A stretch of DNA of 59,749 bases, taken from NCBI GenBank assembly GCA_964485475.1, contig CAZAKB010000002.1:1-59749 (forward strand). Reading direction: 5' to 3'. Positions 9,005 through 53,495 of this stretch are shown piece after piece. The stretch's first letter is position 1. Every line of letters starts with the position of its first letter. Source of the DNA: an uncultured bacterium. GTDB taxonomy: Bacteria; Fidelibacterota; UBA2242. The notes under the pieces were generated by a model. It was not told where the DNA came from. It worked only from the letters and a program-made list of their open reading frames with translations, and did not search any database. A program made the translations under genes and the position numbers.

Positions 9005-9005
9005 T

Positions 9006-11049: not shown

Positions 11050-11057
11050 GATTTCCG

Positions 11058-33712: not shown

Positions 33713-34576
33713 TTACTTAGAAAGTACCATTTTCATGGTCTGCGAAAATTTGTCCGTCTGCAATTTGTAAAAATAAATACCACTGGCCAGATTTGATCCG
33801 TCAAGTGTGACATTATAACTGCCCGCTCCGCGATAATCGTCCACCAGTTTCGCCACTTCGTGTCCCATCATATCAAATACCGACAGGGTTACAAAGGAAT
33901 TTTCAGGAATTTCAAACTGAATATTTGTTGTCGGGTTGAATGGATTCGGAAAGTTCTGGGACAATTTGAATTCGTTGACCATTGGAACTTCATCATCCAC
34001 AGCCGTACCGCCGGTGACTGTAATGGAGTTGTCCAGACTTACATCCATGTAACCTTCTTCCGTATAATCAAGATTCGCCATCGTCAACAAGTAACCAAGG
34101 TTAAAGGTCCCATTGGTATTGCCAACCGTCATACCAATTAACACATCAAACCAGAGTGTATCGGATGCCACCGGTTGGTTGTGCGCTTCGATCCCCTGAA
34201 AAAAGACCCATTTCAAATCATCGCCACTTGGATAATGAGCTTCTGTTGAATCATACCAGGCCTGAGCCACTTTGTAAGGACCCACAGTGTCCCGTAATAC
34301 CGTTTCTGTGGTCAACAGTTCGCAAGTACCTTCGTAATCGCCTTCGTAAGTTACCGTATTCAAAATAAAATCGTTGGGAACCATAACACCAAAGAGCATA
34401 TGACGTTCGACATCATCTTTGTCGTTAGTTGTACAGGTAACGGTAATAGCGATCTCTTCTCCAGCAGTCGCACTGGACGGTTGGTCAACTTCGTGAATGG
34501 TAAAACATCCCATCATTAAAATGGTGATTACCACAACAGCCAATACCAATGTCTTGTTAGTAGCATTAGTTTTCAT
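33713..34576 (-). CDS. Secreted protein with T9SS C-terminal sorting domain (putative surface glycan-binding protein)
   Basis: The start is moved to ATG 34576, which is preceded by AAAGGAGGC. The leader is VLAVVVITILMMGC. The C-terminal LSQNFPNPFNPTTNIQF...GIYFYKLQTDKFSQTMKMVLSK is a classic type A T9SS CTD. Confidence 0.7.
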   Translation of the reverse strand: MKTNATNKTLVLAVVVITILMMGCFTIHEVDQPSSATAGEEIAITVTCTTNDKDDVERHMLFGVMVPNDFILNTVTYEGDYEGTCELLTTETVLRDTVGPYKVAQAWYDSTEAHYPSGDDLKWVFFQGIEAHNQPVASDTLWFDVLIGMTVGNTNGTFNLGYLLTMANLDYTEEGYMDVSLDNSITVTGGTAVDDEVPMVNEFKLSQNFPNPFNPTTNIQFEIPENSFVTLSVFDMMGHEVAKLVDDYRGAGSYNVTLDGSNLASGIYFYKLQTDKFSQTMKMVLSK

Positions 34577-34670
34577 TTCAGCCTCCTTTGTTTGTTTGCG
34601 GTTAGCATTCTTAATTCGTGATTTCCAAAATTGTCTAAATACATCCATTCTCTTCTATTAATTGCTTCTG

Positions 34671-38102: not shown

Positions 38103-38944
38103 CCTTTTATCCCACTCATCATAAAACCCTTGATAAAATATTTCTGGAACAGGAAAAACAGTACAATCATCGGGATCATCATCATTACCGACGCTGCCAT
38201 CAGCATGCCCCACTCTGTCTGATGCTGGCCGATAAACATCGCCAAACCTAAAGCTAGCGTTCCTTTCAACTTATCAGATAAATAAATCAACGGTCCAAAG
38301 AAATCGTTCCAGGTCATCATAAATGTCAGAATTGCCACTGTTGCCAAAGCAGGTTTTGCCAGGGGTAGGACAATGTTCCAGTAGATTCGCCATTCGGAAC
38401 AGCCATCGATCCTGGCCGCATCAAACAGTTCGCCGGGTATTGTCAGAAAAAACTGTCGCAAGAGGAATATATTGAAGGCGCCACCACCAAAAAACGCCGG
38501 CACAATCAGGGGTCTGAATGTATTCAGCCAGCCTAGATTTTTAAACAGCACAAACAAGGGAATCATGGTGACCTGCATCGGCAGCATCATCGTTGCCAAT
38601 ACAAAAATAAACACCCCATTTCGGCCTGGCCATTTCAGACAGGCGAAAGCATAGGCTACTAATGAGCTGGACAGTAGAGTCCCGATAATTGTCATGCTCG
38701 AAATAAAAACAGAATTACGTAAATAGGTTAGAAATGGCATTTTTTCGAATACATTGGCGTAATTTTCCCAGTGAAACTGTTCCGGAATCCACTTCGGCGG
38801 AATCACAAAAATCGATTCATTACCCTTTAATGATGTTGACAAAATCCATAAAAACGGTAATATCAGCATTGTTGCGACTGCAAATAAAAACAAATATGTG
38901 ATAATTGTCTTCAGCAGTTTTCGTGAAGGAGTTTTCAGCATCAT
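38099..38944 (-). CDS. ABC sugar transporter permease (CUT1, MalG-like)
   Basis: 281 aa, multi-TM, with the EAA-type loop DAARIDGCSEWRIYWNIVLPLAKP. Confidence 0.9.
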   Translation of the reverse strand: MMLKTPSRKLLKTIITYLFLFAVATMLILPFLWILSTSLKGNESIFVIPPKWIPEQFHWENYANVFEKMPFLTYLRNSVFISSMTIIGTLLSSSLVAYAFACLKWPGRNGVFIFVLATMMLPMQVTMIPLFVLFKNLGWLNTFRPLIVPAFFGGGAFNIFLLRQFFLTIPGELFDAARIDGCSEWRIYWNIVLPLAKPALATVAILTFMMTWNDFFGPLIYLSDKLKGTLALGLAMFIGQHQTEWGMLMAASVMMMIPMIVLFFLFQKYFIKGFMMSGIKG

Positions 38945-39867
38945 AACTTTTCTCCTTCGTAATAAACCAACTTCTGACCAATTTTGAACTGAGCAACTGT
39001 AACGATCAGAATAAAAACCAGCAGCAGCCAGGCTAAGGCACTGGCGTAGCCCATGCTGAAATCATCAAAGGCCTTATAATAGAGATATAAGTTGTAGAAC
39101 ATCGTTGAATTCAAAGGACCACCTTTGGTCATGACATAGGCTTCAGTAAATACCTGGAATGAAAAAATTATCTCCAGCACTGTCCAAAGAAAAATGAGCG
39201 GTGACACCATGGGAATCGTGACATGCCGGAATTTATTCCACCAGCCACCGCCATCCAGATCGACGACCTCATACATCTGCTGGGGTATGCCCTGCAACGC
39301 CGCCAGAAACACCAGCATACGCCCGCCGCCAATCGACCACAAGCTCATCATAATGATTGACGGTTTTGACCATTCCGGACTCTGCAGCCAGAGAGGGCCC
39401 TGAATACCAAAAAAAGCCAGCAGCGTATTAATCAATCCGTACTGAGGATTCAGCATCCAGAGCCAGATTGAGGACAACACAACGCCGGTAATGATCGATG
39501 GAATGAAATAGATTGTCCGGAAAAAGCGGATACCTCTGACTGAGTTATTTACTAAAACCGCTAAAAGCAACGACCCCAGAATCGCCATTGGTGTTCGTAA
39601 AAATGTATAAAAAACCGTATTCCAAGTGGATTTCCAGAAATAGGGGTCTTCCATAATCAGTTCTCGGTAATTTCCCAGACCAATAAATTGCGGAATCCGA
39701 AGAACATCGTATTGACAGAGACTGTAATACATGGACATGATGATCGGGTAAAGCCCAAATAGGAGAAAACCCAACGCCCAGGGCGAAACAAACAAATATC
39801 CCAACAATGCCTGATTACGACGAAGGGGGCTTTTCCAGAATGATTTTAGACTATCAACAGTATTCAT
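38941..39867 (-). CDS. ABC sugar transporter permease (CUT1, MalF-like)
   Basis: 308 aa, multi-TM, with the EAA-type loop YEVVDLDGGGWWNKFRHVTIPMVSP. It has a 4-nt overlap with the downstream permease. Confidence 0.9.
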   Translation of the reverse strand: MNTVDSLKSFWKSPLRRNQALLGYLFVSPWALGFLLFGLYPIIMSMYYSLCQYDVLRIPQFIGLGNYRELIMEDPYFWKSTWNTVFYTFLRTPMAILGSLLLAVLVNNSVRGIRFFRTIYFIPSIITGVVLSSIWLWMLNPQYGLINTLLAFFGIQGPLWLQSPEWSKPSIIMMSLWSIGGGRMLVFLAALQGIPQQMYEVVDLDGGGWWNKFRHVTIPMVSPLIFLWTVLEIIFSFQVFTEAYVMTKGGPLNSTMFYNLYLYYKAFDDFSMGYASALAWLLLVFILIVTVAQFKIGQKLVYYEGEKL

Positions 39868-39872
39868 CTATC

Positions 39873-41228
39873 CTAATAATCCATTTTTGAACGAACATAT
39901 TTATCATATTCCAGGGTTTTCAGTAATTCGTGATTTACCATTTTTTCTGCCTGATTCAAGGCTTCATCAATAGTCTGAATCTTATTTACGATATGTTCGA
40001 TCGCGTTGTAAAATTCCCGCCAGAACACATCATGGGCCATCGGCACTACCGCTGCAGAATGAGCCAGTTCAATATGTTTTACAAAAATATTCGTCTCGCG
40101 ATCTTTATTAAACCGTTTATCATAGGCCGCTCGCTGATTTGCCGGGAAAAGATTTTCTTCCATCGCCTCAACTGAAGCCAGTTGGATCTCCTTATCAGAC
40201 ATGAACTTGATAAACTCCCAGGACTCGTCGGGGTTTTTAGCACCCCGGGGAATCGCCACCCACCAGCATCCGGAAAAAGATGTTGTCGGAAACCCCGGAA
40301 AACTCGGAATCATCCCGATTCCATAATCTAGATCAGGATGGTAACTTTCAATATGTTCCGGAAAGGTGGACGGCAGGATCATCATGGCAATTTTTTCCGA
40401 AACAAAACAGTGCTGATCCCCATATCCAAAACCAGCCGTAAACGTCGATAATTTATCCATGTCAAAATCACCCATATAGTCCAGCATCCACCGACATGCC
40501 CGGTGCATTTCGGGACTATTCAAATTCAACGCTTGACCATCTTCAATTAAAAATTCGGCACCCAACTGCCAGGCTAAAATAATCGGCGTCGGCAACGTTG
40601 ACTGACCCGGAATCAGGGCCTGCTGGTAAAAAGGAATAAAACCAATTTGAGTAAAGTACCCGTCTTTGTCATATTTTGTCAATTTCCGGGAATATTGCTG
40701 AACTTCCTGCCAGGTCTGAGGAATTTTTTCCGGGTCAAGACCGGCCTCCCGAAACAGTCGCTTATTGATAAAAAATGCATAGGAGGCTGTATAAACCGGA
40801 ATCGCAAAGATGTGGCCCTGCCATCTCATTTCCTTCCACAGCGACGGAAAGAACACAGTTGAATCCAGGCCGTCTCTCTTAATAAAATCATCCAGCGGGC
40901 GTAAGGCCATCCGGGACGCCCATTTCACGACTGGCGAAAATTGGTTGATCACATCCGGAGGATTCCCGGACAACAAGGCGGTCAGGACCTTCTTTTCCTG
41001 TTCCTGCCAGGGAATGACAACCGATTTCACCTCAATACTATCATTTATACTGTTAAATGCAGTAAGGTAGTAAGGGATCTGTTCTTTCTGGCCGGTACTA
41101 TGCCAATACTGAATCACGGTCGTGCCGGTCACCGGTTTTTCACTACGGGTAACCAAAAAAGGGACGACAACCATCAAGCCAATGGTCAAAAACCCAATAA
41201 TCTTCAATAGTGTTTTTATCAGATTCAT
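39873..41228 (-). CDS. ABC transporter extracellular solute-binding protein (family 1, oligosaccharide type)
   Basis: 451 aa with an N-terminal membrane anchor. Size and position are directly upstream of the two CUT1 permeases. Confidence 0.8.
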   Translation of the reverse strand: MNLIKTLLKIIGFLTIGLMVVVPFLVTRSEKPVTGTTVIQYWHSTGQKEQIPYYLTAFNSINDSIEVKSVVIPWQEQEKKVLTALLSGNPPDVINQFSPVVKWASRMALRPLDDFIKRDGLDSTVFFPSLWKEMRWQGHIFAIPVYTASYAFFINKRLFREAGLDPEKIPQTWQEVQQYSRKLTKYDKDGYFTQIGFIPFYQQALIPGQSTLPTPIILAWQLGAEFLIEDGQALNLNSPEMHRACRWMLDYMGDFDMDKLSTFTAGFGYGDQHCFVSEKIAMMILPSTFPEHIESYHPDLDYGIGMIPSFPGFPTTSFSGCWWVAIPRGAKNPDESWEFIKFMSDKEIQLASVEAMEENLFPANQRAAYDKRFNKDRETNIFVKHIELAHSAAVVPMAHDVFWREFYNAIEHIVNKIQTIDEALNQAEKMVNHELLKTLEYDKYVRSKMDY

Positions 41229-41233
41229 AGACT

Positions 41234-43237
41234 CTATTTCAAGTAAACCATTTTCCGGGATTCCCGAAAGGATTTCCCGTCAGCCCTATTAATCCTGAGT
41301 TGATAGCAGTAAATACCACTGGCGATTTCTTGCCCTCTGTAATCCTTAGCATCCCAGATTTGATGATAATAGCCAGCTTGTGCAACGTCCTGCACAAATT
41401 CCCGGACCAACCGTCCGGACAGATCATAGATGGCCAGGTTCACGCTTGCCGGTCGATCGATCCGGTATCCAACGGTCGTTGAATTATTAAAGGGATTCGG
41501 GTAGTTCTGTTGCAGTGTGAATTCTGCCGGTTGGATATCCTTCGGGCTGTCCATATTGTTTTCAGATCCCTCTAAATCCATAACAACAAATCGAGGTCTG
41601 TAGATATCAGCATAGGTGAACGCGTCCCAACCCGACGCATTGACATTATAGCTGATTAATAATTCGCCGGGCTTTGACAAATGGGGATGTGCTTTCGCAT
41701 TATACATAAAAATATTTGCATTATCATCCGCTTCAGGGCAATCCCAGATGGTTTGATAATGCTCAAACGGACCAACCGGGCTGTCCCCGAATCGCACCGC
41801 TACGCTGCGGCTGACAGTATTTAACTGAAATACGCAAATAAATCGACCATCCGCCAAGGGCGTTACACTGAATTCCATGGAAATATTTCGTGTGATTCCG
41901 GCACACCGGGCAATATCGGTCACCCAGTCGCTTCCATCCCAAAACCGGTATTTTGAAAAATCCCGGATATCTTCCGGAAAAAAGCGGGTAGCGGCCATTT
42001 CCCGGACACCCAGACTGCTCATCGGTCCATACACATAGATATAACCATCGGCGCCGTGGTTCCCGGAAACTGTTGTCATCGGCATAATTGCCTCGCCGAT
42101 AATTATTTCCTTCCCATCCGTTGATTCGGCCATGAGAGGCGTATCCACCTGTTTAACGTCTGTCAGATTAAGGCTATCATCCACGCAAAATGAGATTAGA
42201 GAAACACCCAGAATTTCCCAGGGATCCGGTGGTTTCCGCAGCCGCATTCCATAGACATAGACAGTATCACCAATGGCAATGCCATCCATCAGCCAGTACC
42301 AGTTACCGCTACTAGAATGTGGCGTGTCCGGTACAAATATTGCCCCCGGAGAACCGTTATCCTTTTCTCCCCAGGTAAAAATCATTTCTTCTTCCAAGGG
42401 TTGATTGCCCTTCAGGCACCCCAATGTATTATTCACTAATGACGACCCGACCCGAATACCATCATCATTTACTGAACCGATGAACGTGTCACTAAACAGA
42501 AAAAGCGTGTTTCCAGGTTCTCCTTCAGTGTATTGCTCGGATCCGTCTAAGGGAATGCTGAAGATACCGTCTGCTCCGGTCCAACCGCTTTTCCGGTTAA
42601 ACAGTTCTTCCCATTCCAGCGCTCGTGTGGTGTTCAGGTCCGGAGGATCCTCGATTACACAGAGACCTGAATCCGGTACACCGATGGCGTGGGGATAGCT
42701 AAAAGCGGTCCAGCCCGTTCCCAGCAATCCCGTTGTGGCCTTTGTGGCGATATACGCCAGTTTGAAACATCCCTCCATTGTACCGACTTTCAGTTGGAGT
42801 GTAATGTCTGCGGATGGCTTGTCGCTATAGATAAAACCGCTATCAGTCACCATGCAGACCCATTTCATGTTTACACCGTATTCATCGGCAGGATAATAAT
42901 AATCAGCCGAGTCACTCCAGACCGCCGACTCAAACAGAATCCCGTTTCCAACCGAGCTGGAATAGTTACCTGAAATATAGGACCAGTCTGCCGGCAGCAA
43001 TGCTCCTAAAAGTCCTTTGTGAGCATTGGTGGTTTCGGGACTTTCTTCCTGGACAGTTAAATGAACTGTAATAGTATCGCCAGGCTGCGCTTCGACGGGT
43101 TGCCGAACCTCTTTAAAATAACATTGCGAGTTTAATAATCCCACTGCCATTAAGAAAATCACCTGGATATTGAATAAGGACCGATGGTATTTAATTCCGG
43201 TATTTTTATTCTGATTATTCACTAAATAAATTCCCAA
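41234..43237 (-). CDS. Secreted three-module protein: N-terminal surface module, DUF4185-like core and T9SS C-terminal sorting domain
   Basis: 667 aa with a leader ending LLNSQC. The core has TLFLFSDTFIG ... DIYRPRFVVMDL. The C-terminus has LQQNYPNPFNNSTTVGYRI...GIYCYQLRI...KMVYLK. Confidence 0.6.
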   Translation of the reverse strand: MGIYLVNNQNKNTGIKYHRSLFNIQVIFLMAVGLLNSQCYFKEVRQPVEAQPGDTITVHLTVQEESPETTNAHKGLLGALLPADWSYISGNYSSSVGNGILFESAVWSDSADYYYPADEYGVNMKWVCMVTDSGFIYSDKPSADITLQLKVGTMEGCFKLAYIATKATTGLLGTGWTAFSYPHAIGVPDSGLCVIEDPPDLNTTRALEWEELFNRKSGWTGADGIFSIPLDGSEQYTEGEPGNTLFLFSDTFIGSVNDDGIRVGSSLVNNTLGCLKGNQPLEEEMIFTWGEKDNGSPGAIFVPDTPHSSSGNWYWLMDGIAIGDTVYVYGMRLRKPPDPWEILGVSLISFCVDDSLNLTDVKQVDTPLMAESTDGKEIIIGEAIMPMTTVSGNHGADGYIYVYGPMSSLGVREMAATRFFPEDIRDFSKYRFWDGSDWVTDIARCAGITRNISMEFSVTPLADGRFICVFQLNTVSRSVAVRFGDSPVGPFEHYQTIWDCPEADDNANIFMYNAKAHPHLSKPGELLISYNVNASGWDAFTYADIYRPRFVVMDLEGSENNMDSPKDIQPAEFTLQQNYPNPFNNSTTVGYRIDRPASVNLAIYDLSGRLVREFVQDVAQAGYYHQIWDAKDYRGQEIASGIYCYQLRINRADGKSFRESRKMVYLK

Positions 43238-43251
43238 TTATCAAGACCCGG

Positions 43252-44205
43252 TTAAAATGATAAGCTAATTGTCAGCCGATGAGTCGCGCCAAATATGTCA
43301 CCAAAGGATCCATAAGCGTAGTCAACATTTGTTTTTATTTTACCGATTTCAGGAACCATTATTCCAAAGCCGCTCGTTAATCTCTGCTCTTTATCATTGG
43401 CCTGATAGCCGCCCCGTAAGGCCAGTATGTTCATAAAAGTATATTCCACGCCGGTATTTATCCATTCGCTTGCATCCGTCGGGTGAACCAATTCAATCGA
43501 AGCGACCAGCCGATGGAAATCTGATGCAACTATTTTATCACTGGCCCCCACGCGGAACAGAAGCGGGGTTCGGAATTGTTGCTCTGCCAGCACCATATCC
43601 GGACCGAAGTGCTGTAATGCAAAGGCCAGTTTCAAATCCCGAAATCCCGTATGATAAATCGTACCGATATCAAAGAGCATGTTCTCAAATGACCGATTAT
43701 CCAGCACTTCCTGCACATATTTAATTTGAAGACCGATTGTCAGTTTATCCGTAAAACGTCGTGCTAGAGAAAGACCCACGAGATAATCCCCGGCTCCGAC
43801 CATATTGCCGGTTCCGTTCGGTTCTAAAACCGTCGTTTCTTCGAACTCTTTGATTTTAAAACTGATAGCACTGAGTCCAATCACAAAGGATTTCATCGGG
43901 ATGGCTACCGCGAAGGCGTCGTGAGTGCTTTCCACCAACCAGTTGGTGTGTGAAAAAGTCAGCTGAGGATCCGTTACAAACCCGATTCCGGCGACATTCC
44001 AGAAAACGGCATTGACGTCATCCGACAGACTGGTAAATGCTTCTCCCATGGCGGATTCCCGTCCGCCGACACCGATCTTCAGGAATTGCAGACCTGCGGA
44101 ACCGGCTTTGGTAAAATCAAACCCCCAATCAAACTGTGCCAGGGTATTCTGACTGATCAGGAATATTATAGACAGAGATATGATAATTTTTTTCATAAAT
44201 CTCAC
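43252..44205 (-). CDS. PorV/PorQ-family outer-membrane beta-barrel protein
   Basis: 317 aa with a signal peptide. GGRESAMGEAFTSLSDDVNAVFWNVAGIG matches the conserved N-terminal motif of PorV/PorQ (FadL-like) barrels. The C-terminus ends in an aromatic residue (SLSF). Confidence 0.65.
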   Translation of the reverse strand: MRFMKKIIISLSIIFLISQNTLAQFDWGFDFTKAGSAGLQFLKIGVGGRESAMGEAFTSLSDDVNAVFWNVAGIGFVTDPQLTFSHTNWLVESTHDAFAVAIPMKSFVIGLSAISFKIKEFEETTVLEPNGTGNMVGAGDYLVGLSLARRFTDKLTIGLQIKYVQEVLDNRSFENMLFDIGTIYHTGFRDLKLAFALQHFGPDMVLAEQQFRTPLLFRVGASDKIVASDFHRLVASIELVHPTDASEWINTGVEYTFMNILALRGGYQANDKEQRLTSGFGIMVPEIGKIKTNVDYAYGSFGDIFGATHRLTISLSF

Positions 44206-44207
44206 CT

Positions 44208-46091
44208 TTATTTAATAATGATCAATGATCCTTTAGCCGTTCCGACTTTTGAATCCACTGTCCAAAAATAGATACCGGGAGCCGTGCGCTGCCGGGCCTT
44301 GGTCAATTGGTCCCAAATTTCTTCGCCTGAGGCAACGTTTTTGTGTTTCAGAGTGCGGATGTGTTCACCGGAAGAGGTATAGATGCGAATATCACAGGTG
44401 TCCGGAAGGTTTGTCCAGACAATTGAATTAGCATCTGCTAGTGCAGGAAATCCAGATGCTTCACGGAAAGGATTAGGAAATACAATTACATCAAGAGTAT
44501 TTTCAGCGGGTTGGCTGGATACCATCACTGCTTCAGTATTGCGATTTGTCAACCAACTCTCATTACCATCGGAATCAACTGATGTAACAGCATAATAATA
44601 ACCAACACCAAGAAGAACATCCTCACCACTATCATCATATTGCCACCGATCTGTTTCAGAATTAATATATCGTTTTCGATCAGTACTGCTTCCAACCCTA
44701 ATTTTATTTTTAATTTTATCATAAGGACCAATAAATGCGCGGTCGCTACGATATACACTATAGTAAGAAAAATCATTAATCCCGGAAATTGGGTCGATCC
44801 AGTCAGTATCAATCTTTTCCCAGGATATAGTAATTGCTTGTGAACTGGGTAATGGCACAATTTCAATATCCGGTGAAGGAGGAGGCAAATCTACTATTTC
44901 GTAATTATTCTCATAAAGTGTCTTGGCATTATCTATCGTTTCCTGAAGCATTCCGAGTCCCTGACTCAGTTTTTCTTGTGCAGTAGGAAATTCACTATAG
45001 GGGATATCAATGACATCTTCCAGCGGAAGACCATTGACGGCTTCAACGATTGTGATTCGAACGGAATCCAATGACGCAATGGTATACGGCCCACAGGACA
45101 TTAACATGATTGGTGTAATATGCAAATCCGGGTCCGCTTGCCGGGAATTGTCCGTGCCATTTAAGAGAGCGTACAACGATTGCTTGCTGGCCACTCCATC
45201 CAGAGTATAAAATTGGGATTGGCTCATGACACTCGCCCAAAAAACCGCCGCCGGTTGCGGCTCATTATTCGAAGCCGGATCGGCCCCCAAAAGCGCAAAA
45301 CCAGCATAGCCCGGTGAGCGCAATTCCTCGGCGTCATCCCAGTAATTGCCCCAGTCCCACATATATTCGGTATACGTTGCCATATAGTTATCATAGGCGT
45401 ATAAAAGTGCCCTGGAGCTGTCAAAAGCGACTGACTCATCTTCACGACTGGCATTATCACCCCAGCCGTTATGGACGACTTGATCCTGATAACTGGGGCG
45501 AATGAGGTATGGAAAACCGACATAGGCATCCAGAATCGTCGCAGACGTCTGATTTGTGACGACGTACTCAATAATAATACAATTATTTAAACCGGGAAAA
45601 CTCCAGACTTTACTGGTTCGCTTGACATGCACATTTTCTGGTGTGGTCCACTCGGCAACGATAGACTCTTCCGGCGAATCCGGATCATAATCCGGTGAAC
45701 CAATAAAGTTTTCAATTTTCACCAATGCCTGAAACTCCCCGTCCACAACCGGTGATATGGGACCATTTTCAGCAAAGGCGATGACACCGTTTGCATCTTT
45801 CCAGCCCATCCAGAACCCGGCAGCATAAAGATAGGAACGCTGATCGTCTTTGTCTTTTAAATCATTGGGTCCACCGGGCCAGTCCATGCTGGGATAAAAT
45901 TCATAGCGATTGGTCGGATTAGGTGCCCCAATCGTACCATCATCTTTCATTGTTTCCCATAATTCTCCACGGTCATGAAGCAGGAAATCGGCGCGCCGCA
46001 ATTGACCATACAGTGAAGAGATACTAAGTAACAAAATCATTGCGATTATTCTGATATATTTCGGCATTTTACTATCCTTTATTTCGCTCAT
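44208..46091 (-). CDS. Secreted hypothetical protein with T9SS/FlgD-Ig-like C-terminal domain, adjacent to the TonB-dependent receptor
   Basis: 627 aa with the leader IIAMILLLSISSLYGQ (alternative start at M9, 46067). The C-terminus is VFPNPFRE...GIYFWTVDSKVGTAKGSLIIIK. The body has no recognisable catalytic family. Confidence 0.6.
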   Translation of the reverse strand: MSEIKDSKMPKYIRIIAMILLLSISSLYGQLRRADFLLHDRGELWETMKDDGTIGAPNPTNRYEFYPSMDWPGGPNDLKDKDDQRSYLYAAGFWMGWKDANGVIAFAENGPISPVVDGEFQALVKIENFIGSPDYDPDSPEESIVAEWTTPENVHVKRTSKVWSFPGLNNCIIIEYVVTNQTSATILDAYVGFPYLIRPSYQDQVVHNGWGDNASREDESVAFDSSRALLYAYDNYMATYTEYMWDWGNYWDDAEELRSPGYAGFALLGADPASNNEPQPAAVFWASVMSQSQFYTLDGVASKQSLYALLNGTDNSRQADPDLHITPIMLMSCGPYTIASLDSVRITIVEAVNGLPLEDVIDIPYSEFPTAQEKLSQGLGMLQETIDNAKTLYENNYEIVDLPPPSPDIEIVPLPSSQAITISWEKIDTDWIDPISGINDFSYYSVYRSDRAFIGPYDKIKNKIRVGSSTDRKRYINSETDRWQYDDSGEDVLLGVGYYYAVTSVDSDGNESWLTNRNTEAVMVSSQPAENTLDVIVFPNPFREASGFPALADANSIVWTNLPDTCDIRIYTSSGEHIRTLKHKNVASGEEIWDQLTKARQRTAPGIYFWTVDSKVGTAKGSLIIIK

Positions 46092-46105
46092 CTTGATTAC
46101 TCTCC

Positions 46106-49100
46106 TTAACGAAAATTGTATTTAATTCCAAAGTAAATCCGGCGGGCCGGTGCATAGGTTTGAGCGGTGATATCGTAACCAACTTCATCCACTTTCGGAA
46201 TCGTACCATTGTCGATATAATCGCTGAGTATATTATCACTTTCATTATAGTAAATATTGCCCAGGGAAATCATATTCTTGGCATTAAATACATTGGTAAT
46301 TCGAATATAGGCTGAGAGGATATGATTCTTACCGATTTCAATATTTTTCACCAATCGCAAATCCACGTTATTGAAGGCGGGATAGCGGTAATTATCATAA
46401 GTGTCCGGTGAATCATCGGGTCCTTGATACGTAAAGGGTTGCCCACTGATATACTGATGTAAAATACTGAGACTGGTTCCCTTTAATACCGGTGTAAGCA
46501 ATGGAATTTTCAGATCATCCGGATATCTCAGGTAAATATTCGTCCGGACAGTATGGGGACGACTGTAGGAATTCTGAACCGGGATGCGCTTGTTGATATC
46601 CGTATCCCATACGTAGGTATAGTTACCTTCACCATCGATCTTAATTTGCCCGGGACTGGCTCTTCCGATTGTTGATTTGGAAAAACTATAGTTTATATCC
46701 AGGGTAAATACCCGCGAAAATAATGTTCTCAACGTTATTTCAAATCCCCGGGCATCTCCATAATCACCCGGGAAGCTGCTGACGTAAAAAAGGTTGGGGG
46801 TCGTTTGTGAATTTATCGGATCCCATCCGTAGATACGCCGATCGAAAATGCCGTACCGGGCCGCGGTTTTATTAAACGCATCTTTATAAAAGGCGGTCAC
46901 ATCCAGAACGGCCACATCATTAAAATTTTGTTTGATTCCCACCTCAAAGGAAATCGTCTTTTCCGGTTTGAGCGGTTCCGCAGTCAAAAACACAATTCGT
47001 TCCGGATCGCCGTTATCGGAAGGAAAATGATTCGGTTCCCGCCCCTGGGCTGCCGCAGAATCCATTTCAGTCATGATTCCCTGAATGATCTTTTCAGGTC
47101 GAAAATAGCTGAGTTCAAACATCCGATCAAGGGGCGGCATCTGGTAAAAATGCCCGTAATTGAAGTGCAACAACGTATTTTCAGTAATCGGAAAGGATAC
47201 TCCCAATCTCGGACTAAACATATGATAGGACGGTGCTTGCTCCATGGGTTGATTCATAACATTTTCAAAGGAATATTTCACATTTCCCGAAGAATCCAGC
47301 TGATCGCCATCCGGGTCAAGAGCAGGATTAAAATCAGAATTTAAACTGTAATTATACAGGTTATTTGTCGAAAACCATTCACGGTTTGGATTAAAGTAAT
47401 CATAGCGCATTCCAACATTCAAAATCATACTCTCAAATTCCATTTTATTTTGAGCATATAGGGCAATCTGGATTGGATTGAAGGTATCATGCAGGCCCCG
47501 GTTCATCCATAATTCAGGATTGGACTTATAGTCAATATAGGACGGATATCGATAGGCCTTAAGTTCAGACATCGTATTATAGCGGAATTCAAAACCGGTT
47601 TTCAGAAAATTAAACGAATTCCACTGCCAGTTCAGACTCCCCAACCACGATAGATCACTGTTCTTCCAATGATTGTCCAGAACAAACGCCCAAGCGTCAA
47701 ACGGTTCCACAAAATATTCTTCATCGCTAAAATTGACCACCGTGTTGTATCGCTGAAATCCCCAAATATCGGGCATATCACTCTGGCCGATTTCAGTATA
47801 ATCGCTTGGTTTTTCACGGATATCGGTCAGATAGTAGCTCAGCTTTAAATCATAAAATAATTTTTGAGATAATACATGACTCCATAACAGACTGTTGCTG
47901 TAGGTATAGGTATCCAACAATGTGCCCCACCCGCGATAATATTTGGCCTGAGGTACAAATTGCCCATATTCCTGCCAGGTTGAGTGCCCTTCATGGTTAT
48001 AAAAACCGGTAAACCGCAATTTCGCTCGGGAGTCCGACTGAAACGCAATGTTGTAGGTGATATTTTCCTGGTCGTGAGTATCCCTGGGGCGCGGATATAT
48101 ATAGGCCTCTTTTTTAATTTGTGTTGCCACAAAAAATGAACTTCTAATATCTCCAATGTGAAACAGTGGACCACCAAGGCTGAAAAAAATATTTTGATCC
48201 GGTATTTTCCGATAATCATAGATATTTTTTTGCCGGTATGAAGTCATCCAATCTGGATCAATAACACCAATATCGGCCGTCGTATCCCGGTAGTTGTAAT
48301 AATTTTGGTCCCACCAAACTGCTGAAGGAGCATTGATATGATCCCGATACTCTTTCTGATATTTGCTCCACCACTGATTATCGATATCTGTCATAGACTC
48401 AATATGTGCAAGGGAATCTTCGGCAGATGGAATTTGAGTTCCCCAGGCAGACTGCCAGTTGGCGTGCTCATTATCTAATATTTCCCAATGATTCCGGACT
48501 TGAGTCTCGGTCGGGTGACTGTACATATAATTTCCGAAATGATGCTGGCCAGCAGTTCCGTAAATGTATTCAAACGAGAATGAATATTTTTCACCCCCCT
48601 CCCGTGTAATCACATTTACAATTCCGGACTGGGCTTCGCCGTACTCCGCATTAAAACCGGAAGTGATTAACTGTACTTCACTGATCGAGTGCATATTTAC
48701 ATCTGTAAATGAACCACCCTGGTCCGCTCGGCCTTCCATCAAAGATGAAGACCGGACACCATCTATAAACCATTTAACTTCACCCTGACTTCCACCCCGG
48801 ATTGAGTACCGGGGTTCTCCCCGGCCCTGTCCATTAAACCCGGAACTCAACGGCAATGGATCCATAAAAATACCGGTCTGAATCATCAACCCTTCTTTTG
48901 CATCGGCTACCGGCAACTGGGTGAGTTCTTCAAGCTCAACAAACTGGGTACTGTTGGTGATATCCTTCTGTATCACCGGACGCGTCGCGGTTACCACAAC
49001 TTCCTGGCCCATGTCAATCGCCTTAGATTCCAAATCCATATTAACTGTTGTCGTATGATCAATATTGACTTTGACATCCTTGACCATCACCTTGCCGTAG

Positions 49101-49354
49101 CCAATCATTGACACATGCAGTGTATATGTGCCGGGAGGAATCGACAAAATAAAATACCGTCCGTCGATATCAGTAGCGGCGCCAAACATTTGCCCTTCGA
49201 CCAGAACATTTGCCCCGACCAGAGCTTCCCCAATATTCTTGTCACGAACCAGTCCTGTGATTTTTCCAGTTTCTCCAGCAAATACCGTCATCGAACTGTA
49301 CAAAACCATCAAAAAAACAAAATCGAGAAGGCATTCAATCTTTCGTTTACTCAT
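46106..49354 (-). CDS. TonB-dependent receptor with N-terminal carboxypeptidase-regulatory-like domain (SusC-like, no SusD partner)
   Basis: 1082 aa. GKITGLVRDKNIGEALVGANVLVEG...DIDGRYFILSIPPGTYTL is the CarbopepD_reg-like domain. A plug region follows, and the C-terminus ends in a terminal aromatic residue (KYNFR region). Confidence 0.9.
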   Translation of the reverse strand: MSKRKIECLLDFVFLMVLYSSMTVFAGETGKITGLVRDKNIGEALVGANVLVEGQMFGAATDIDGRYFILSIPPGTYTLHVSMIGYGKVMVKDVKVNIDHTTTVNMDLESKAIDMGQEVVVTATRPVIQKDITNSTQFVELEELTQLPVADAKEGLMIQTGIFMDPLPLSSGFNGQGRGEPRYSIRGGSQGEVKWFIDGVRSSSLMEGRADQGGSFTDVNMHSISEVQLITSGFNAEYGEAQSGIVNVITREGGEKYSFSFEYIYGTAGQHHFGNYMYSHPTETQVRNHWEILDNEHANWQSAWGTQIPSAEDSLAHIESMTDIDNQWWSKYQKEYRDHINAPSAVWWDQNYYNYRDTTADIGVIDPDWMTSYRQKNIYDYRKIPDQNIFFSLGGPLFHIGDIRSSFFVATQIKKEAYIYPRPRDTHDQENITYNIAFQSDSRAKLRFTGFYNHEGHSTWQEYGQFVPQAKYYRGWGTLLDTYTYSNSLLWSHVLSQKLFYDLKLSYYLTDIREKPSDYTEIGQSDMPDIWGFQRYNTVVNFSDEEYFVEPFDAWAFVLDNHWKNSDLSWLGSLNWQWNSFNFLKTGFEFRYNTMSELKAYRYPSYIDYKSNPELWMNRGLHDTFNPIQIALYAQNKMEFESMILNVGMRYDYFNPNREWFSTNNLYNYSLNSDFNPALDPDGDQLDSSGNVKYSFENVMNQPMEQAPSYHMFSPRLGVSFPITENTLLHFNYGHFYQMPPLDRMFELSYFRPEKIIQGIMTEMDSAAAQGREPNHFPSDNGDPERIVFLTAEPLKPEKTISFEVGIKQNFNDVAVLDVTAFYKDAFNKTAARYGIFDRRIYGWDPINSQTTPNLFYVSSFPGDYGDARGFEITLRTLFSRVFTLDINYSFSKSTIGRASPGQIKIDGEGNYTYVWDTDINKRIPVQNSYSRPHTVRTNIYLRYPDDLKIPLLTPVLKGTSLSILHQYISGQPFTYQGPDDSPDTYDNYRYPAFNNVDLRLVKNIEIGKNHILSAYIRITNVFNAKNMISLGNIYYNESDNILSDYIDNGTIPKVDEVGYDITAQTYAPARRIYFGIKYNFR

Positions 49355-49396: not shown

Positions 49397-50107
49397 CTAT
49401 TCTTCATCCGGGAAATAATTAATGATGATATCCCGGATGCGCTTTAACCGGGTTTCCATCAGTTCAATTGCTCTCTCCTTGTCCTTCTTTTTTAATGCCT
49501 CGTACAAATCGGAATGGGTCTGATAATCTTCCTGGCAGGCCATATGTTTATTGATCAGCTGAATCTGATCGTCAGTATATAAATTTGTAATGACTCGAAC
49601 AATCTCGTTAATTATAATATTTTTTGCGGCTTTCCGAATCATATAATGAAATTCCAGGTAATCCAGACCACATTCATTAAAGTTATCCAGATGGAGTTTC
49701 GCGTCGTCCAGCAGACCTTTCATCTTCAGGAACTCACACTGGGTCATATTGTTGATAGCCAGAGATACGATCATGCCCTCCATCGCAATTCTTGCGTCGA
49801 TCAGTTCCAGTAATATCTTTTTTGATAATGGTTGAGCGGTAGTAATCGGGTTCGGCAGAAACAGGGTATTGAAGTAACGTCCGACAAAAATCCCGGAACC
49901 GTGTTTAATCACAATCGAGCCGATGGTTTCAAGCTTCTTTATTGCTTCCCGCAGGGTTGGCAAACCGACTCCGAAAAATTTGGCGAGTTCTGCTGTTGAA
50001 GGCAGGCGATCACCCCGTTTTAAATCATTTCTGACAATAAATGCCCGAATCTCCTCGGCCAGATGATCTGAGAGAGAACGTTTGTTTATGGGAGTAATGT
50101 CATTCAT
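49397..50107 (-). CDS. GntR-family transcriptional regulator (FadR/FCD subfamily)
   Basis: 236 aa. The winged-HTH N-terminus (GDRLPSTAELAKFFGVGLPTLREAIKKLE) is followed by an all-helical FCD-like C-terminal domain. Confidence 0.9.
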   Translation of the reverse strand: MNDITPINKRSLSDHLAEEIRAFIVRNDLKRGDRLPSTAELAKFFGVGLPTLREAIKKLETIGSIVIKHGSGIFVGRYFNTLFLPNPITTAQPLSKKILLELIDARIAMEGMIVSLAINNMTQCEFLKMKGLLDDAKLHLDNFNECGLDYLEFHYMIRKAAKNIIINEIVRVITNLYTDDQIQLINKHMACQEDYQTHSDLYEALKKKDKERAIELMETRLKRIRDIIINYFPDEE

Positions 50108-50142: not shown

Positions 50143-50412
50143 ATAACTTTCAAAGTATAAATTAATTTCCAACAAGTTTCAAGATAAAAATGTATTTTTA
50201 AAATCAGAATCAGCGCACCAAAATTTTAGCAAGGTGATTTCATTCGAAAATCCATTAACAGTCGCCAACGCATCAAAGCCATTATCAACCATCAAGCAAC
50301 CGATCGCAGCGGTTTCTGGCTTGGTAATCCGCATGCCGATACTTGGCCGATTTTTCACCGCTATTTCAAGACCGATTCTGAAGAAAATTTACGTGTAAAA
50401 ATTGGTGATGAT

Positions 50413-51261
50413 GTGCGCTGGATTTGCCCCCAGTTACAGCTTGGTTTTTACCGTGCCCCCGATGGAAAGGGTTTGTTTAATAATTACTCTGCAAAGGATG
50501 GAAAACACCCTCTCGCCGACTGTGAAACCATTGGAGAATTAGAGAACTTCAGCTGGCCCAATCCTGATTATCTTTACTTTAATGATACCATTGACATCCT
50601 TCGGAATACCGGTAACATTTACCGTTTAAGCGGGATGTGGACTTCCTTCTATCATGATCTTATGTTTTTATTTGGAATGGATAACTATCTCATTAAAATG
50701 TACACTCATCCCGAAGTAGTCGAGAGAGCCACTCAATATGTTTGTGAATTCTATTTTGAAGCCAACCGGATCTTTTTTGAACAGGCCGGAGATTTAGTTG
50801 ACGGTTATTTCTTCGGGAACGATTTCGGAACCCAGCAGGATTTGATAATGAGTCCGGATCTTTTCGATAAATTTATCATGCCCTGGTTTCGTCGTTTTAC
50901 AGATCAGGGTCATTCATACGGATACCAGGTCATCCTGCATTCTTGCGGTGCCATTTACAAAGTTATTGAACGATTAATTGATGCGGGTGTGGATTGTCTG
51001 CATCCCCTTCAGGCAAAGGCATGCAATATGAATGCTGAAACCCTGGCCCGTGATTTCAAAAATAAAATCGCTTTTATGGGTGGTATTGATACCCAGGATT
51101 TGCTGGTTAACGCTTCTCCTGAAGAGATTAAAAAGGATGTTCGTCGAGTAAAATCTCTGCTGGGCCCAAACCTTATCATCAGCCCCAGCCACGAAGCCCT
51201 GTTACCTAACATTCCACCAGAGAATGTTCAGGCCATGATTGAGGCAGCATTTGAAAAATAA
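50413..51261 (+). CDS. URO-D/MtaA-like protein, paralog D (H-S-C-G); conserved N-terminal coding sequence continues upstream to 50230 without a canonical start
   Basis: The only canonical start is GTG 50413. The same frame stays open from 50230 and encodes SRQRIKAIINHQATDRSGFWLGNP, which is homologous to the N-termini of the other paralogs. VILHSCGAIYKVIERLIDAGVDCLHPLQ is present. Confidence 0.7.
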   Translation: MRWICPQLQLGFYRAPDGKGLFNNYSAKDGKHPLADCETIGELENFSWPNPDYLYFNDTIDILRNTGNIYRLSGMWTSFYHDLMFLFGMDNYLIKMYTHPEVVERATQYVCEFYFEANRIFFEQAGDLVDGYFFGNDFGTQQDLIMSPDLFDKFIMPWFRRFTDQGHSYGYQVILHSCGAIYKVIERLIDAGVDCLHPLQAKACNMNAETLARDFKNKIAFMGGIDTQDLLVNASPEEIKKDVRRVKSLLGPNLIISPSHEALLPNIPPENVQAMIEAAFEK

Positions 51262-51288
51262 TTTACAACCGGTTAATTGGAGAATTGG

Positions 51289-52389
51289 ATGACATCCCGA
51301 GAACGATTATTAACTGCCCTTTCCAATGAAAAACCCGACCACCTGCCCTGCCAGGTACACAGTTGGATGCCCTATTATCTGAAAACCTACTTGGACGGCC
51401 GGGATCAGTTTGGAGCTTATGAATTTTTCAAGGGAATGGATTGGGTCATCTACGCCAATCCCCGGTTCATCTATAATGATACGGACCACGGTGTCTGGAA
51501 AAAACGGGATATCGATCTGGGAACTGATAGCGATGGTTCGCATCAGTTCCGGCATATCATCACAACCCCGGAAGGGGAATTGAGCTACGGACTGGGCTGG
51601 AACCAGTTCACCGCCTGGGTCACCAAGCATCTGATCGAAACGGAACGGGATTTCGATCTCTGGCAAAAATATGTCCCACTCCCGGAAAAAGTCGACTGGA
51701 CGCCACTAATCGAAATAAAAAAACGCATTGGTGATAGGGGCATTGTGCGGGGGGAATTTTTCGGCTTTGGGCAGGGCAGCCCCTGGCAGGACTTTTGTTA
51801 TATGTTCGGCACAGAGCTGGCGATTTATGCCGCTTATGACCGGCCCAATTGGGTTCACCACGTCTTAAACACCCTCCTGGAGAAAAAAATCAGTGTGATT
51901 GAGCGCGCCGGAACTTTTGAAATGGATATGGTCGAAACCGGGGGTGGGGCTGGATCGTCAACGGTAATCAGTCCCTCTATGCACCGGGAATTCTGTCTGC
52001 CTTACGATCGGATCCAAATCAACGCGTTGCACAACGCCGGAACCCGGGTGGTGTATCACCTCTGCGGCGGACTAATGCCACTCCTGGAAACAATCGTCGA
52101 AAACGGCACTGACGGCCTCGAAACGATGACACCGCTTTCAATGGGAGGTGATTGCAACCTGGCGGAAGCCAATCAGCGGGTTGGGAATAAATTATTTTTT
52201 ATCGGCGGTTTTGATCAGAACGCCGGTTTTGAAAAAGGTGATGCCGAAACCACGGCAAAATTGGTTCGGGAATGTCATCAGGCCTGCCCCGACGGTGGCT
52301 ATATTTGCAGCCCCTCGGATCACTTTTTCAGTGGTGATCCGGCCAATGTGCAGGCATTCGTGGATGAAGCCAATCGTTGTCATTATTAA
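51289..52389 (+). CDS. URO-D/MtaA-like protein, paralog E (H-L-C-G)
   Basis: ATG 51289 is preceded by GGAG with 6-nt spacing (the ORF track begins at TTG 51277). It has SRERLLTALSNEKPDHLP and VVYHLCGGLMPLLETIVENGTDGLE. Confidence 0.8.
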   Translation: MTSRERLLTALSNEKPDHLPCQVHSWMPYYLKTYLDGRDQFGAYEFFKGMDWVIYANPRFIYNDTDHGVWKKRDIDLGTDSDGSHQFRHIITTPEGELSYGLGWNQFTAWVTKHLIETERDFDLWQKYVPLPEKVDWTPLIEIKKRIGDRGIVRGEFFGFGQGSPWQDFCYMFGTELAIYAAYDRPNWVHHVLNTLLEKKISVIERAGTFEMDMVETGGGAGSSTVISPSMHREFCLPYDRIQINALHNAGTRVVYHLCGGLMPLLETIVENGTDGLETMTPLSMGGDCNLAEANQRVGNKLFFIGGFDQNAGFEKGDAETTAKLVRECHQACPDGGYICSPSDHFFSGDPANVQAFVDEANRCHY

Positions 52390-52400
52390 CACCTAAAGCA

Positions 52401-53495
52401 ATGGACACCCACATGCTTGACACTATCCCGATCCATCACCCAAATCCCGATAATCAAGCCTTCATTGCGCACCTCATGGGCCAAAAGCCACTGACCGCTG
52501 CACCCCTGGTGGAATACAATATCGATGATTCGCATATCCAACGAATCACAACGGAGATATTCAATCGTCCCTGGATTCCCTGGAGCAGAACACGGAGTGA
52601 TCAGCAATCTTGTCTGGATAATTTTATCCAGATCTGGTACCGCCTGGGTTACGATTTCGTCCGCTTTGAGCGCAGTCTGAGATTTGATGAAAAACGTGTT
52701 ATTGGTAAGGAACGCAGTTGGGTGGATCAGCAAAAGGGTGCTATTCAAAACTGGCAGGATTTTGAACAATATCAATGGCCCAAAGTCAGTGAATTTGATT
52801 TCTCTTCCTATGAATACATTAACAATAATCTCCCTAATGGCATGGGCTTTATTGTGTCCCATGCCGGGGGTGTATTTGAACATCTGTCTCAGATTATGTC
52901 CTTTGAAGGGCTGTGCTACGCCCTGGTGGATCAGCGTGATCTGGTGGAAGCAATTGTTGAAAAACTCGGAACATTAACAACGGAATTCTATTCTCAAATC
53001 CTGGACCTTGACCATGTTATTGCCTTGTGGCCGGGTGATGATATGGGTTATCATAGCGGAACAATGATTTCCCCTGCTGATTTGGGGCAGCTTATTCTTC
53101 CCTGGCATAAAATTTTTGCCCGGATGGCTCACAAACGTGGATTGCCTTATTTCTTGCATTCCTGTGGCAATTTAACAGATATTATGGATACGTTGATAGC
53201 TGATGTAATGATCGACGGCAAACATTCCTTTGAGGACTCAATTATACCGGTGGAAGATTTTCACAAGCAGTATGGAAAAAGGATCGCGGTTCTGGGAGGT
53301 GTTGACGTCAACATCCTGGCGTCTGGTACACCGGAAGAGGTTCGAGCCCGCACCCGGGATCTGATTGAAAAATGCGATCTCATTGGAAGGTTCGGAATTG
53401 GCTCCGGCAATTCAATTCCGGATTACGTCCCTCTTAATAATTATTTGGCAATGATCGATGAAAGACATAAAGTAGCCCATGCAGGAAAACATTAA
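52401..53495 (+). CDS. URO-D/MtaA-like protein, paralog F (H-S-C-G)
   Basis: ATG 52401 (the track begins at TTG 52377, overlapping the previous stop). It has YFLHSCGNLTDIMDTLIADVMIDGKHSFE and RIAVLGGVDVN. Confidence 0.8.
   Translation: MDTHMLDTIPIHHPNPDNQAFIAHLMGQKPLTAAPLVEYNIDDSHIQRITTEIFNRPWIPWSRTRSDQQSCLDNFIQIWYRLGYDFVRFERSLRFDEKRVIGKERSWVDQQKGAIQNWQDFEQYQWPKVSEFDFSSYEYINNNLPNGMGFIVSHAGGVFEHLSQIMSFEGLCYALVDQRDLVEAIVEKLGTLTTEFYSQILDLDHVIALWPGDDMGYHSGTMISPADLGQLILPWHKIFARMAHKRGLPYFLHSCGNLTDIMDTLIADVMIDGKHSFEDSIIPVEDFHKQYGKRIAVLGGVDVNILASGTPEEVRARTRDLIEKCDLIGRFGIGSGNSIPDYVPLNNYLAMIDERHKVAHAGKH

Follow-up and report, generated by a model that had tools for sequence, protein, structure and literature searches.

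We identified, in a 59.7-kb stretch of DNA from an uncultured bacterium of the Fidelibacterota (contig CAZAKB010000002.1, positions 1 to 59,749; hereafter the window), three consecutive genes that encode a TonB-dependent receptor, a secreted protein that we call X (P627) and a small outer-membrane barrel of the PorV/PorQ family, and we found the same trio in genomes from several phyla. We favour, with moderate confidence, the reading that X is a glycan binder exported via the T9SS (type IX secretion system) that would keep its C-terminal tail and sit, next to the receptor, docked on a barrel of its own. With the DUF4185-like enzyme gene that follows the barrel, the trio makes up the four minus-strand open reading frames (ORFs) that are our subject; 38 substantial ORFs of the window were scanned. 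The four lie where the first-pass annotation of this DNA had placed them, with gaps of 14, 2 and 14 nt (Table 1). Public gene callers choose starts that shorten the barrel to 314 amino acids (an 11-nt gap) and the fourth protein to 633–638 amino acids, about 100 nt past the barrel, so the spacing between barrel and fourth gene is uncertain. The nearest named homologues of the barrel and X, 67–84% identical, come from metagenome-assembled genomes (MAGs) of Candidatus Marinimicrobia/Neomarinimicrobiota. Candidatus Marinimicrobia is now the phylum Fidelibacterota in the Fibrobacteres–Chlorobi–Bacteroidetes (FCB) group, and the classical-Bacteroidota framing that the locus had been given does not apply.

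A scan of related genomes, one genome per species, recovered 80 loci, whose six-frame ORFs we searched with the window proteins. They span Neomarinimicrobiota, Ignavibacteriales (including a Melioribacter roseus MAG), Calditrichia, Rhodothermales and KSB1, and include MAGs labelled Bacteroidetes, Cytophagia or Chitinophagales. The order receptor, X, barrel holds in every one of the 80 loci with enough upstream DNA, and the receptor gene is directly 5′ of X in every informative locus. The median distance from the stop codon of X to the codon for the conserved mature N-terminal glutamine of the barrel is 77 nt, barely more than a signal peptide needs; the X and barrel genes are thus tightly coupled. 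The gene 3′ of the barrel varies, encoding the DUF4185 enzyme, a GH38-like protein, an ATP-binding cassette (ABC) binding protein or GH38, and the conserved unit is therefore a trio, not a quartet. Some loci do keep all four: a Calditrichia MAG and an Ignavibacteriaceae MAG encode the receptor, X, the barrel and the DUF4185 enzyme with the same regulator or ABC genes. The adjacency within the trio, which the first-pass annotation had expected to be conserved in related genomes, holds across several phyla and is not due to chance; of the four-gene module that it had proposed, the DUF4185 enzyme is optional, its place being taken in many loci by GH38 or an ABC binding protein. One Ignavibacteriales MAG, SURF_24, carries two copies of the entire locus in the same order on separate contigs (L039 and L046; QZKB01000046.1 and QZKB01000014.1), which may reflect either genuine duplication or the binning of two strains into one MAG.

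The tail of X sets it apart from the other tail-bearing proteins of these loci. We made two profiles, one from the tails of X proteins (S-type) and one from the tails of the neighbouring enzymes (A-type), and the two proved homologous (hhalign probability 98%) yet cleanly separable. In the 80 genome loci, 83 of 83 X orthologues carry the S-type tail and 106 of 106 other tail-bearing ORFs carry the A-type. The division recurs in the loci of distant barrel paralogues described below: 45 S-type ORFs lie directly 5′ of the barrel gene, none of the 32 A-type ORFs adjoins a barrel, and the other eight S-type ORFs are, every one, the first gene of a second operon layout. The proteins encoded between receptor and barrel in the paralogue loci share the C terminus of X (PNP[FY], NLPxxCxIRIYT, G.YF and a terminal IIK). 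Judged by sequence, the X tail is a separable subclass of type A that is confined to barrel-linked genes in the loci examined. Its earlier identification as a T9SS-type domain stands to the extent that the tail is related to type A, though diverged from it, with the same profile–profile probability of 98% against type A tails from the same loci and one X orthologue named ‘T9SS type A sorting domain-containing protein’ by NCBI; the curated type A models do not recognize it, with no match to TIGR04183 or PF18962 at E ≤ 0.01. The type B domain CHU_C had no match in X and was below its cut-off in the 667-amino-acid enzyme encoded by the fourth gene. A likeness of the X tail to the retained tails of PorU and PorZ was considered and dropped, as the NCBIfam scores are about 20 bits and the PDB match to PorU has an E value of 1.4; the neighbouring enzyme's tail, of the generic type A, matches PorU better (E 0.001), which makes the likeness uninformative.

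The S-type tail is also strongly conserved. Across 37 genomes its mean pairwise identity is 0.705, compared with 0.573 for the N-domain of X, 0.494 for its FN3 domain and 0.372 for the tail of the neighbouring enzyme in the same genomes. Conservation within the barrel is higher in the putative extracellular loops (0.615) than in strands (0.515) or periplasmic turns (0.484), and peaks in the putative loops L2 (EETTVLEPNGTG, 0.74) and L5 (PTDAS, 0.78). The L2 and L5 motifs (for example, EETT...P.GTG) persist in the consensus of the paralogues and are absent from the aligned PorV of Flavobacterium johnsoniae. This pattern is the reverse of the usual variability of loops and, taken on the predicted topology, fits a protein–protein surface common to all such modules.

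Family models and structure prediction agree on the kind of barrel involved. The protein scores 175.5 bits on the NCBIfam model NF033709 (‘PorV/PorQ family’; cut-off, 90) over residues 37–317, and falls far below the cut-offs of the models for individual members: 60.3 bits against 250 for the PorV equivalog (NF033710), 16.1 against 27 for PF19572, 60.0 against 220 for PorQ (NF033711) and 56.0 against 325 for PorV2 (NF052325). Neither PF11751 (PorP/SprF) nor PF03349 (Toluene_X/FadL) matched it at E ≤ 0.01. Its best PDB sequence match is F. johnsoniae PorV (6h3i_F, E 1e-4). An AlphaFold2 (AF2) model built on 25 homologues, with a predicted local distance difference test score (pLDDT) of 79, contains 14 strands together with an N-terminal, hatch-like segment that is conserved. 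Foldseek places first among its structural matches F. johnsoniae PorV within a substrate-bound T9SS complex (8gl6_F; E 2e-11, template modelling (TM) score 0.68), followed by FadL/TodX, with the BamG-type chains 9n2d_B and 9hjm_F lower (E 3e-6 and 9e-6). The barrel belongs to the PorV/PorQ superfamily, as the first-pass annotation had proposed, and is an orthologue of none of PorV, PorQ, PorP/SprF and FadL.

No Pfam family was found in X and a catalytic domain was not detected, in line with its original description as a protein of no recognizable catalytic family. Its 314 homologues are more than 50% identical across phyla. The AF2 model (30 homologues, pLDDT 76) comprises an N-terminal segment (residues ~30–85), a β-supersandwich (~85–355), a helical hairpin (364–393), an FN3 domain (~405–505) and a C-terminal β-sandwich that is the S-type domain (530–627). 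Foldseek aligns the large domain of this model with the N-terminal supersandwich of GH94 cellobiose and cellodextrin phosphorylases and with similar accessory domains, and the remainder with FN3 arrays. Glycan binding by X is plausible on the strength of these predicted likenesses.

The ~55 residues with which mature X begins rank among its best conserved, with a peak of 0.81 at residues 41–60, and AF2 gives residues ~30–85 no structure (pLDDT 33–54). A like segment (R.G...N.G.I...EWP.GSG) opens an X-like protein of Caldithrix (L089). This segment could fold only against a partner, be it the receptor or the barrel. Both the barrel (…LAQ↓) and X (consensus …AQxR) have an invariant glutamine at the predicted mature N terminus, which would fit the ‘Q-rule’ of exported proteins of Bacteroidota, in which the N terminus becomes pyroglutamate.

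The trio is one of many. An exhaustive HMMER search related 10,392 clusters (at 50% identity) to the barrel at E ≤ 1e-3, of which its own orthologous group is a single cluster. A metagenome scan with a paralogue alignment gave 80 further loci, 70 of them with upstream DNA; in 64 of these 70 informative loci, distant paralogues that are 32–50% identical to the barrel adjoin receptors of its receptor's type, and the groups represented are Calditrichota, KSB1, Ignavibacteria, Gemmatimonadota, Eisenbacteria and WOR-3. An X-like protein with an S-type tail is encoded directly 5′ of the barrel in 43 of the 70 loci (preceded by a receptor in 15, by the contig end in 25 and by no receptor in 3), the receptor itself is directly 5′ in 21, and neither is in 6. 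In Pfam-annotated contexts of paralogues at ~30–40% identity, a receptor of the CarboxypepD_reg–Plug type accompanies the barrel in 7 of 7.

Gene order differs among the modules inspected. Loci of Marinimicrobia and Caldithrix abyssi encode LacI, the receptor, a 1,076–1,136-amino-acid protein of no assigned family and the barrel; in Eisenbacteria the order is receptor, an 831-amino-acid protein of the same kind and barrel. A contig labelled Gemmatimonadetes has ExbB, ExbD, ExbD and TonB between the receptor and a 942-amino-acid protein, which is followed by the barrel (L170, positions 1–7948), and these ExbB/ExbD/ExbD/TonB genes tie that module to TonB-energized transport. In a contig labelled WOR-3, the receptor, a 1,080-amino-acid protein and the barrel precede an ABC importer, GH94 and a glycoamylase/CBM30 protein with a T9SS tail, so that the trio of this locus (L172, 1039–15014) fronts a different sugar locus. 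KSB1 and Melioribacteraceae have a second layout, with the barrel directly 3′ of the receptor: an S-type protein, a ~700-amino-acid protein with a type A tail, a ~470–500-amino-acid lipoprotein, the receptor, the barrel, a ~350-amino-acid lipoprotein with NHL repeats and an enzyme with a type A tail (an S8 peptidase or a phospholipase D (PLD)-like protein). This layout occurs in L087 (KSB1, 1–12000), L088 (Melioribacteraceae, 1–11400), L120, L127, L132, L142, L143, L145 and L147, and its substrate may be protein or lipid instead of glycan.

The X-like proteins of the paralogue modules share pieces of the N-domain and of the helix–FN3 region with X, and the trio as a whole has evidently diversified by duplication. 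The idea that the barrel is dedicated to one locus holds in that it is embedded in its own sugar locus, with the qualification that it is one of a very large family of modules. A more general reading, which we put forward tentatively and at somewhat less than even weight, is that the S-type tail, as a class of T9SS domain that had gone unrecognized, would be a permanent docking tag for dedicated small PorV-like barrels, each wired to its own receptor, and the trio a widespread functional counterpart of SusC/SusD in relatives of the Bacteroidota, among them Fidelibacterota, Ignavibacteria, Rhodothermia, Calditrichota, KSB1, Gemmatimonadota, Eisenbacteria and WOR-3. In such a scheme the trio would have been duplicated often for different substrates, and docking of T9SS cargo would replace surface lipoproteins.

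For the window itself we hypothesize the following sequence of steps. X would be exported by the T9SS, and its S-type tail would remain uncleaved and dock on its cognate barrel at the conserved extracellular loops, on the model of PorZ/PorQ, PorU/PorV and type B cargo/PorP–SprF. The barrel would thereby tether X beside or onto the receptor. X would capture glycan or oligosaccharides cut at the surface by ordinary T9SS cargo, namely the DUF4185 enzyme and a DUF4961 protein, each with a generic type A tail, and would pass the products to the receptor, after which an ABC importer, GH38 and other enzymes would complete the breakdown inside. X would stand functionally in place of the SusD/SusE of Bacteroidia, and the trio probably fills the role that SusD has in Bacteroides. 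The proposal draws on two precedents. Cognate PorV-like barrels hold uncleaved tails (PorZ–PorQ, PorU–PorV and type B–PorP/SprF), and their genes cluster (PMC10202324). BamG, a FadL-like barrel, is a structural subunit; it packs on a larger barrel, and its extracellular loops bind a surface protein (PMC12578637). A TonB-dependent receptor, T9SS cargo, a PorV-family barrel and a private barrel for one cargo are all known. What the analysis establishes is which genes are present and their families, the folds predicted for them, their conserved order, the restriction of the S-type tail to X proteins and the patterns of conservation; we infer that the T9SS exports X, that X keeps its tail, docks on the barrel near the receptor and binds glycan, and what the substrate is.

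The barrel might instead be a private but transient shuttle that takes X from the T9SS translocon, with the tail then cleaved and X released or attached to lipopolysaccharide (LPS), so that no lasting complex forms. Such a role would suit the best fold match, which is PorV within a substrate-bound T9SS complex, as well as the shuttling that PorV is described to perform and the homology of the S-type tail to type A tails, which are normally cleaved. We nevertheless think it unlikely. A passing signal need not be the most conserved part of X, shuttling leaves unexplained why barrel and receptor genes adjoin where the X-like gene is 7 kb off, and the private barrels described so far (PorQ and PorP/SprF) retain their partners.

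Another scheme to which we give a low probability makes the barrel a subunit of the receptor, in the manner of BamG on BamA and maybe as a co-channel or stabilizer, with the X tail a secretion signal only and X a SusD-like lid. It leaves unexplained a special tail subclass that is confined to barrel-linked genes, and the adjacency of X-like and barrel genes is kept in Gemmatimonadetes even where TonB–ExbBD genes part them from the receptor. In its favour are the direct adjacency of receptor and barrel in 21 of the 70 metagenome loci and in the KSB1 and Melioribacteraceae loci, the precedent of BamG together with the BamG-type chains (9n2d_B and 9hjm_F) among the fold matches, and the conserved N-terminal segment of X that AF2 does not place, which could be a receptor-binding element. 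The scheme is compatible with docking of X on its barrel if the barrel bridges both partners.

A further identity for the barrel, which seems to us improbable, is that of a FadL-type channel or small porin that moves some small molecule of the pathway and is unrelated to T9SS tails. The 14-stranded FadL fold, the rank of FadL/TodX as next-best structural matches, weak precomputed Toluene_X matches in some homologues and the conserved hatch-like segment would agree with a channel. Against this, PorV leads both the sequence and the structure matches, the barrel itself has no Toluene_X match at E ≤ 0.01 and scores 175 bits on the PorV/PorQ family model, its strict co-occurrence with one tail subclass would go unexplained, and the receptor already covers sugar uptake. 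The family name would allow the barrel to be the general PorV or PorQ of the genome that happens to sit in a sugar operon, a reading that we find very improbable and effectively refuted, given 60 bits against cut-offs of 250 and 220, an unchanged position at this sugar locus across 80 genomes from several phyla, other paralogues of the same phylum that adjoin other receptors (including a second, different one beside another receptor in a Marinimicrobia MAG) and no PorU-like gene in the window, porV being genetically linked to porU in Porphyromonas gingivalis.

Several points weigh against the docking of X on its barrel as we propose it. The contact between tail and barrel is one that we infer from genetics and conservation, and the conservation of the X tail could instead stem from contacts with the receptor or with part of the T9SS. 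The putative assignment of loops and turns in the barrel combines the AF2 model with the usual rule that the N terminus lies in the periplasm. The second layout of KSB1, Melioribacteraceae and others places the S-type protein ~7 kb 5′ of the barrel, so adjacency of X and barrel is not universal, and a contact between barrel and receptor is at least as well supported as one between barrel and X. The paralogues sampled are those most like the query, and the 91% linkage to receptors may not hold family-wide. Finally, X may be catalytic, as its N-domain has many invariant acidic and aromatic residues.

The fourth gene encodes a DUF4185-like protein with a T9SS tail, as originally described (46.4 bits on PF13810 against a gathering cut-off of 39.5, and a PDB match to 4hbs at E 1e-9; see Table 1 for the tail, which on PF18962 reaches 21.8 bits, under the cut-off of 27). 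The first-pass annotation had both tail-bearing proteins held by the barrel. For the enzyme this finds no support, since only X carries the barrel-linked tail and the type A tail of the enzyme is generic and fast-evolving. On its sequence, the DUF4185 enzyme is best read as ordinary T9SS cargo, and two further window proteins carry type A tails above curated cut-offs.

The receptor has the N-terminal domain layout of SusC, and in this respect its description as ‘SusC-like’ is apt. It fails the SusC/RagA model (TIGR04056; 78.1 bits against a cut-off of 368.25, with residues 31–338 alone matched), and no solved SusC is among its PDB matches at E ≤ 1e-3. The reported lack of a SusD homologue was borne out, with SusD families absent from all 38 substantial ORFs of the window; no susD-family gene adjoins the receptor in the window or in the related loci inspected (the Calditrichia and Ignavibacteriaceae MAGs).

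Gene content, the lack of an interrupting terminator and the position of the best promoter-like site mark this region as the outer-membrane front end of a large sugar-utilization operon. A GntR/FCD regulator gene heads the same-strand array 42 nt 5′ of the receptor gene, and in loci of Marinimicrobia, Calditrichia and Rhodothermales an orthologue of this regulator stands ahead of the receptor. The best promoter match sits 5′ of the regulator gene in a 305-nt divergent intergenic region. Promoter-like sites in the region number 58, compared with 41.6 ± 5.6 in shuffled sequence, a count of consensus matches alone under a model that may not suit the phylum; overall, counts of promoter-like and terminator-like sites are near the shuffled expectation. 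The terminator scan found no intergenic terminator that interrupts the array, all terminator-like sites being intragenic. The genes of an ABC importer are conserved together with the trio in nearly all 80 genome loci. Farther downstream on the same strand lie genes for more GH38 proteins, an MGH1-like hydrolase, an esterase, ROK and PfkB kinases, isomerase-like cupins and several URO-D-like proteins, and the rest of the window adds two GH38 genes, another DUF4185 gene, a GH106-like enzyme, SASA esterases and a GH13 enzyme.

The substrate of the operon is most likely a mannose-containing glycan. Four GH38 genes, together with mannose-type kinases and isomerases, point by their family assignments to a substrate that contains α-mannosides. 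PF13810 is matched by the fourth gene and three other window genes, all weak, family-level matches, and the DUF4185 paralogue at 32511–33626 also matches the endo-α-D-arabinanase 8hhv (E 3e-8). Characterized DUF4185/GH183 members are endo-D-arabinofuranases, endo-acting enzymes of polysaccharide utilization loci (PULs) (PMC10115798). They cleave the D-arabinan of mycobacterial arabinogalactan and lipoarabinomannan. The pairing of DUF4185 and GH38 families raises the possibility of an arabinomannan-like target. Read from its GTG start, the large GH38-N-domain gene shares 115 nt with the permease gene before it, and translation therefore probably begins further downstream. ORFs for which this is the best-matching window protein carry a type A T9SS tail in 15 related loci, which would place a mannosidase-like enzyme at the surface. 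Six paralogues of URO-D (PF01208) are spread across the sugar island, three of them consecutive and adjoining the gene for the MalK-type ATPase; the family is unusual for a glycan locus, and these proteins may have a modified sugar as substrate, for example for demethylation or decarboxylation.

Table 1. Features of the locus, with coordinates in the 59.7-kb window
Feature	Position	Strand	Remarks
TonB-dependent receptor, 1,082 amino acids	46106–49354	−	CarboxypepD_reg, Plug, TonB_dep_Rec_b-barrel (Pfam)
X (P627), secreted, 627 amino acids	44208–46091	−	Signal peptide; no Pfam family
S-type C-terminal domain of X, residues 530–627	44211–44504	−	Motifs VFPNPF, NLPxxCxIRIYT, GIYFW, C-terminal IIIK
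Small PorV/PorQ-family barrel, 317 amino acids	43252–44205	−	314 amino acids from ATG at 44196; NF033709 match
T9SS cargo enzyme, 667 amino acids from TTG	41234–43237	−	DUF4961, DUF4185/DUF5005 (GH183-like), type A tail
Generic type A tail of the 667-amino-acid enzyme, residues 578–667	41237–41506	−	TIGR04183 27.2 bits (cut-off, 23)
GntR/FCD-family transcription regulator	49397–50107	−	GntR 61.8 bits, FCD 46 bits
Best σ70-like promoter match	50154–50182	−	TTGAAA, 17-nt spacer, TATACT; 10/12 consensus matches
ABC sugar importer	38099–41228	−	Solute-binding protein 39873–41228; permeases 38941–39867, 38099–38944
MalK-type ATPase of the sugar importer	53511–54614	+	Encoded divergently
GH38-N-domain protein	34671–38213	−	1,180-amino-acid ORF; GH38 N-terminal domain is residues 368–633 only
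DUF4961 protein with type A tail	33713–34648	−	Downstream, conserved with the module
DUF4185 protein	32511–33626	−	Downstream, conserved with the module
GH38 gene	27681–30470		
GH38 gene	12805–15555		
DUF4185 gene	3788–4921	−	
GH38 gene	977–3754		
URO-D paralogue	16529–17770	−	
URO-D paralogue	20533–21549	−	
URO-D paralogue	30494–31468	−	
URO-D paralogue	50413–51261	+	
URO-D paralogue	51277–52389	+	
URO-D paralogue	52377–53495	+	

Several known systems resemble parts of the module. In the attachment complex of P. gingivalis (PorQ–PorZ and PorV–PorU), as here, a barrel of a FadL-fold family is paired with one T9SS-exported protein. There the C-terminal domain of the partner is kept as a docking element, whereas retention of the X tail would be by extension. 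The window barrel is also ~50–80 residues shorter than PorQ or PorV and lies in a catabolic operon with a receptor, not with genes of the T9SS machinery, and X looks like a glycan binder rather than a sortase or LPS-delivery protein such as PorU or PorZ. PorP/SprF (SprF–SprB and PorP–PG1035) is likewise a dedicated barrel whose gene clusters with that of its own cargo of a distinct tail class, and this cargo bypasses the general PorV route and is thought to be anchored on its own barrel (PMC10202324). Our module differs in its barrel family, in an S-type tail that is a diverged type A and not a type B, and in a linkage to receptors that is foreign to SprF. BamG–BamH includes a 14-stranded FadL-like barrel as a subunit, as we propose here, but its partners are BamA and a lipoprotein, its process is membrane protein assembly, and its likeness to the window barrel is weaker than that of PorV (E 3e-6 and 9e-6 against 2e-11).

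Closest in overall logic is SusC/SusD (with SusE/F/G), whose operons also combine a regulator, a TonB importer, a surface glycan binder, surface endo-enzymes and glycosidases; the receptor shares with SusC the N-terminal arrangement of CarboxypepD_reg and Plug. In contrast to SusCD loci, the window has no SusD, its surface proteins bear T9SS tails and are not lipoproteins, and the inner-membrane step is an ABC importer that works with a periplasmic binding protein. M. roseus also has a classical SusCDE (PMC3534657), so both systems can coexist. The DUF4185 genes of the window belong to the same family as the GH183 endo-D-arabinofuranases, and here they keep company with GH38 α-mannosidases and mannose-type metabolism. 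We found no description in the open-access literature of the trio, of the S-type tail or of their multi-phylum spread at uptake loci, an absence that is not proof, and the genome papers on Caldithrix and Melioribacter do not mention the trio.

Polymer capture by TonB-dependent receptors is understood mainly from the SusCD systems of Bacteroidia, in which the partner of the receptor is a surface lipoprotein. Many abundant environmental phyla, including SAR406/Marinimicrobia, Ignavibacteria, Calditrichota and Gemmatimonadota, are rich in such receptors and in T9SS cargo and have few or no SusD proteins. If our reading is true, a receptor, a tethered binder and a private PorV-like barrel that act as a conserved trio would fill this gap in SusD-poor phyla, and the S-type tail with the small barrel would serve as a genomic marker of substrate-uptake loci. 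Because the barrel family exceeds 10,000 clusters at 50% identity, a substantial number of loci would be affected. The trio is directly testable in the cultured carriers M. roseus and C. abyssi, and should interest both the glycan-uptake and the T9SS fields. If it acts as proposed, it would extend the principle of the cognate barrel in the T9SS from secretion machinery and adhesins to nutrient uptake.

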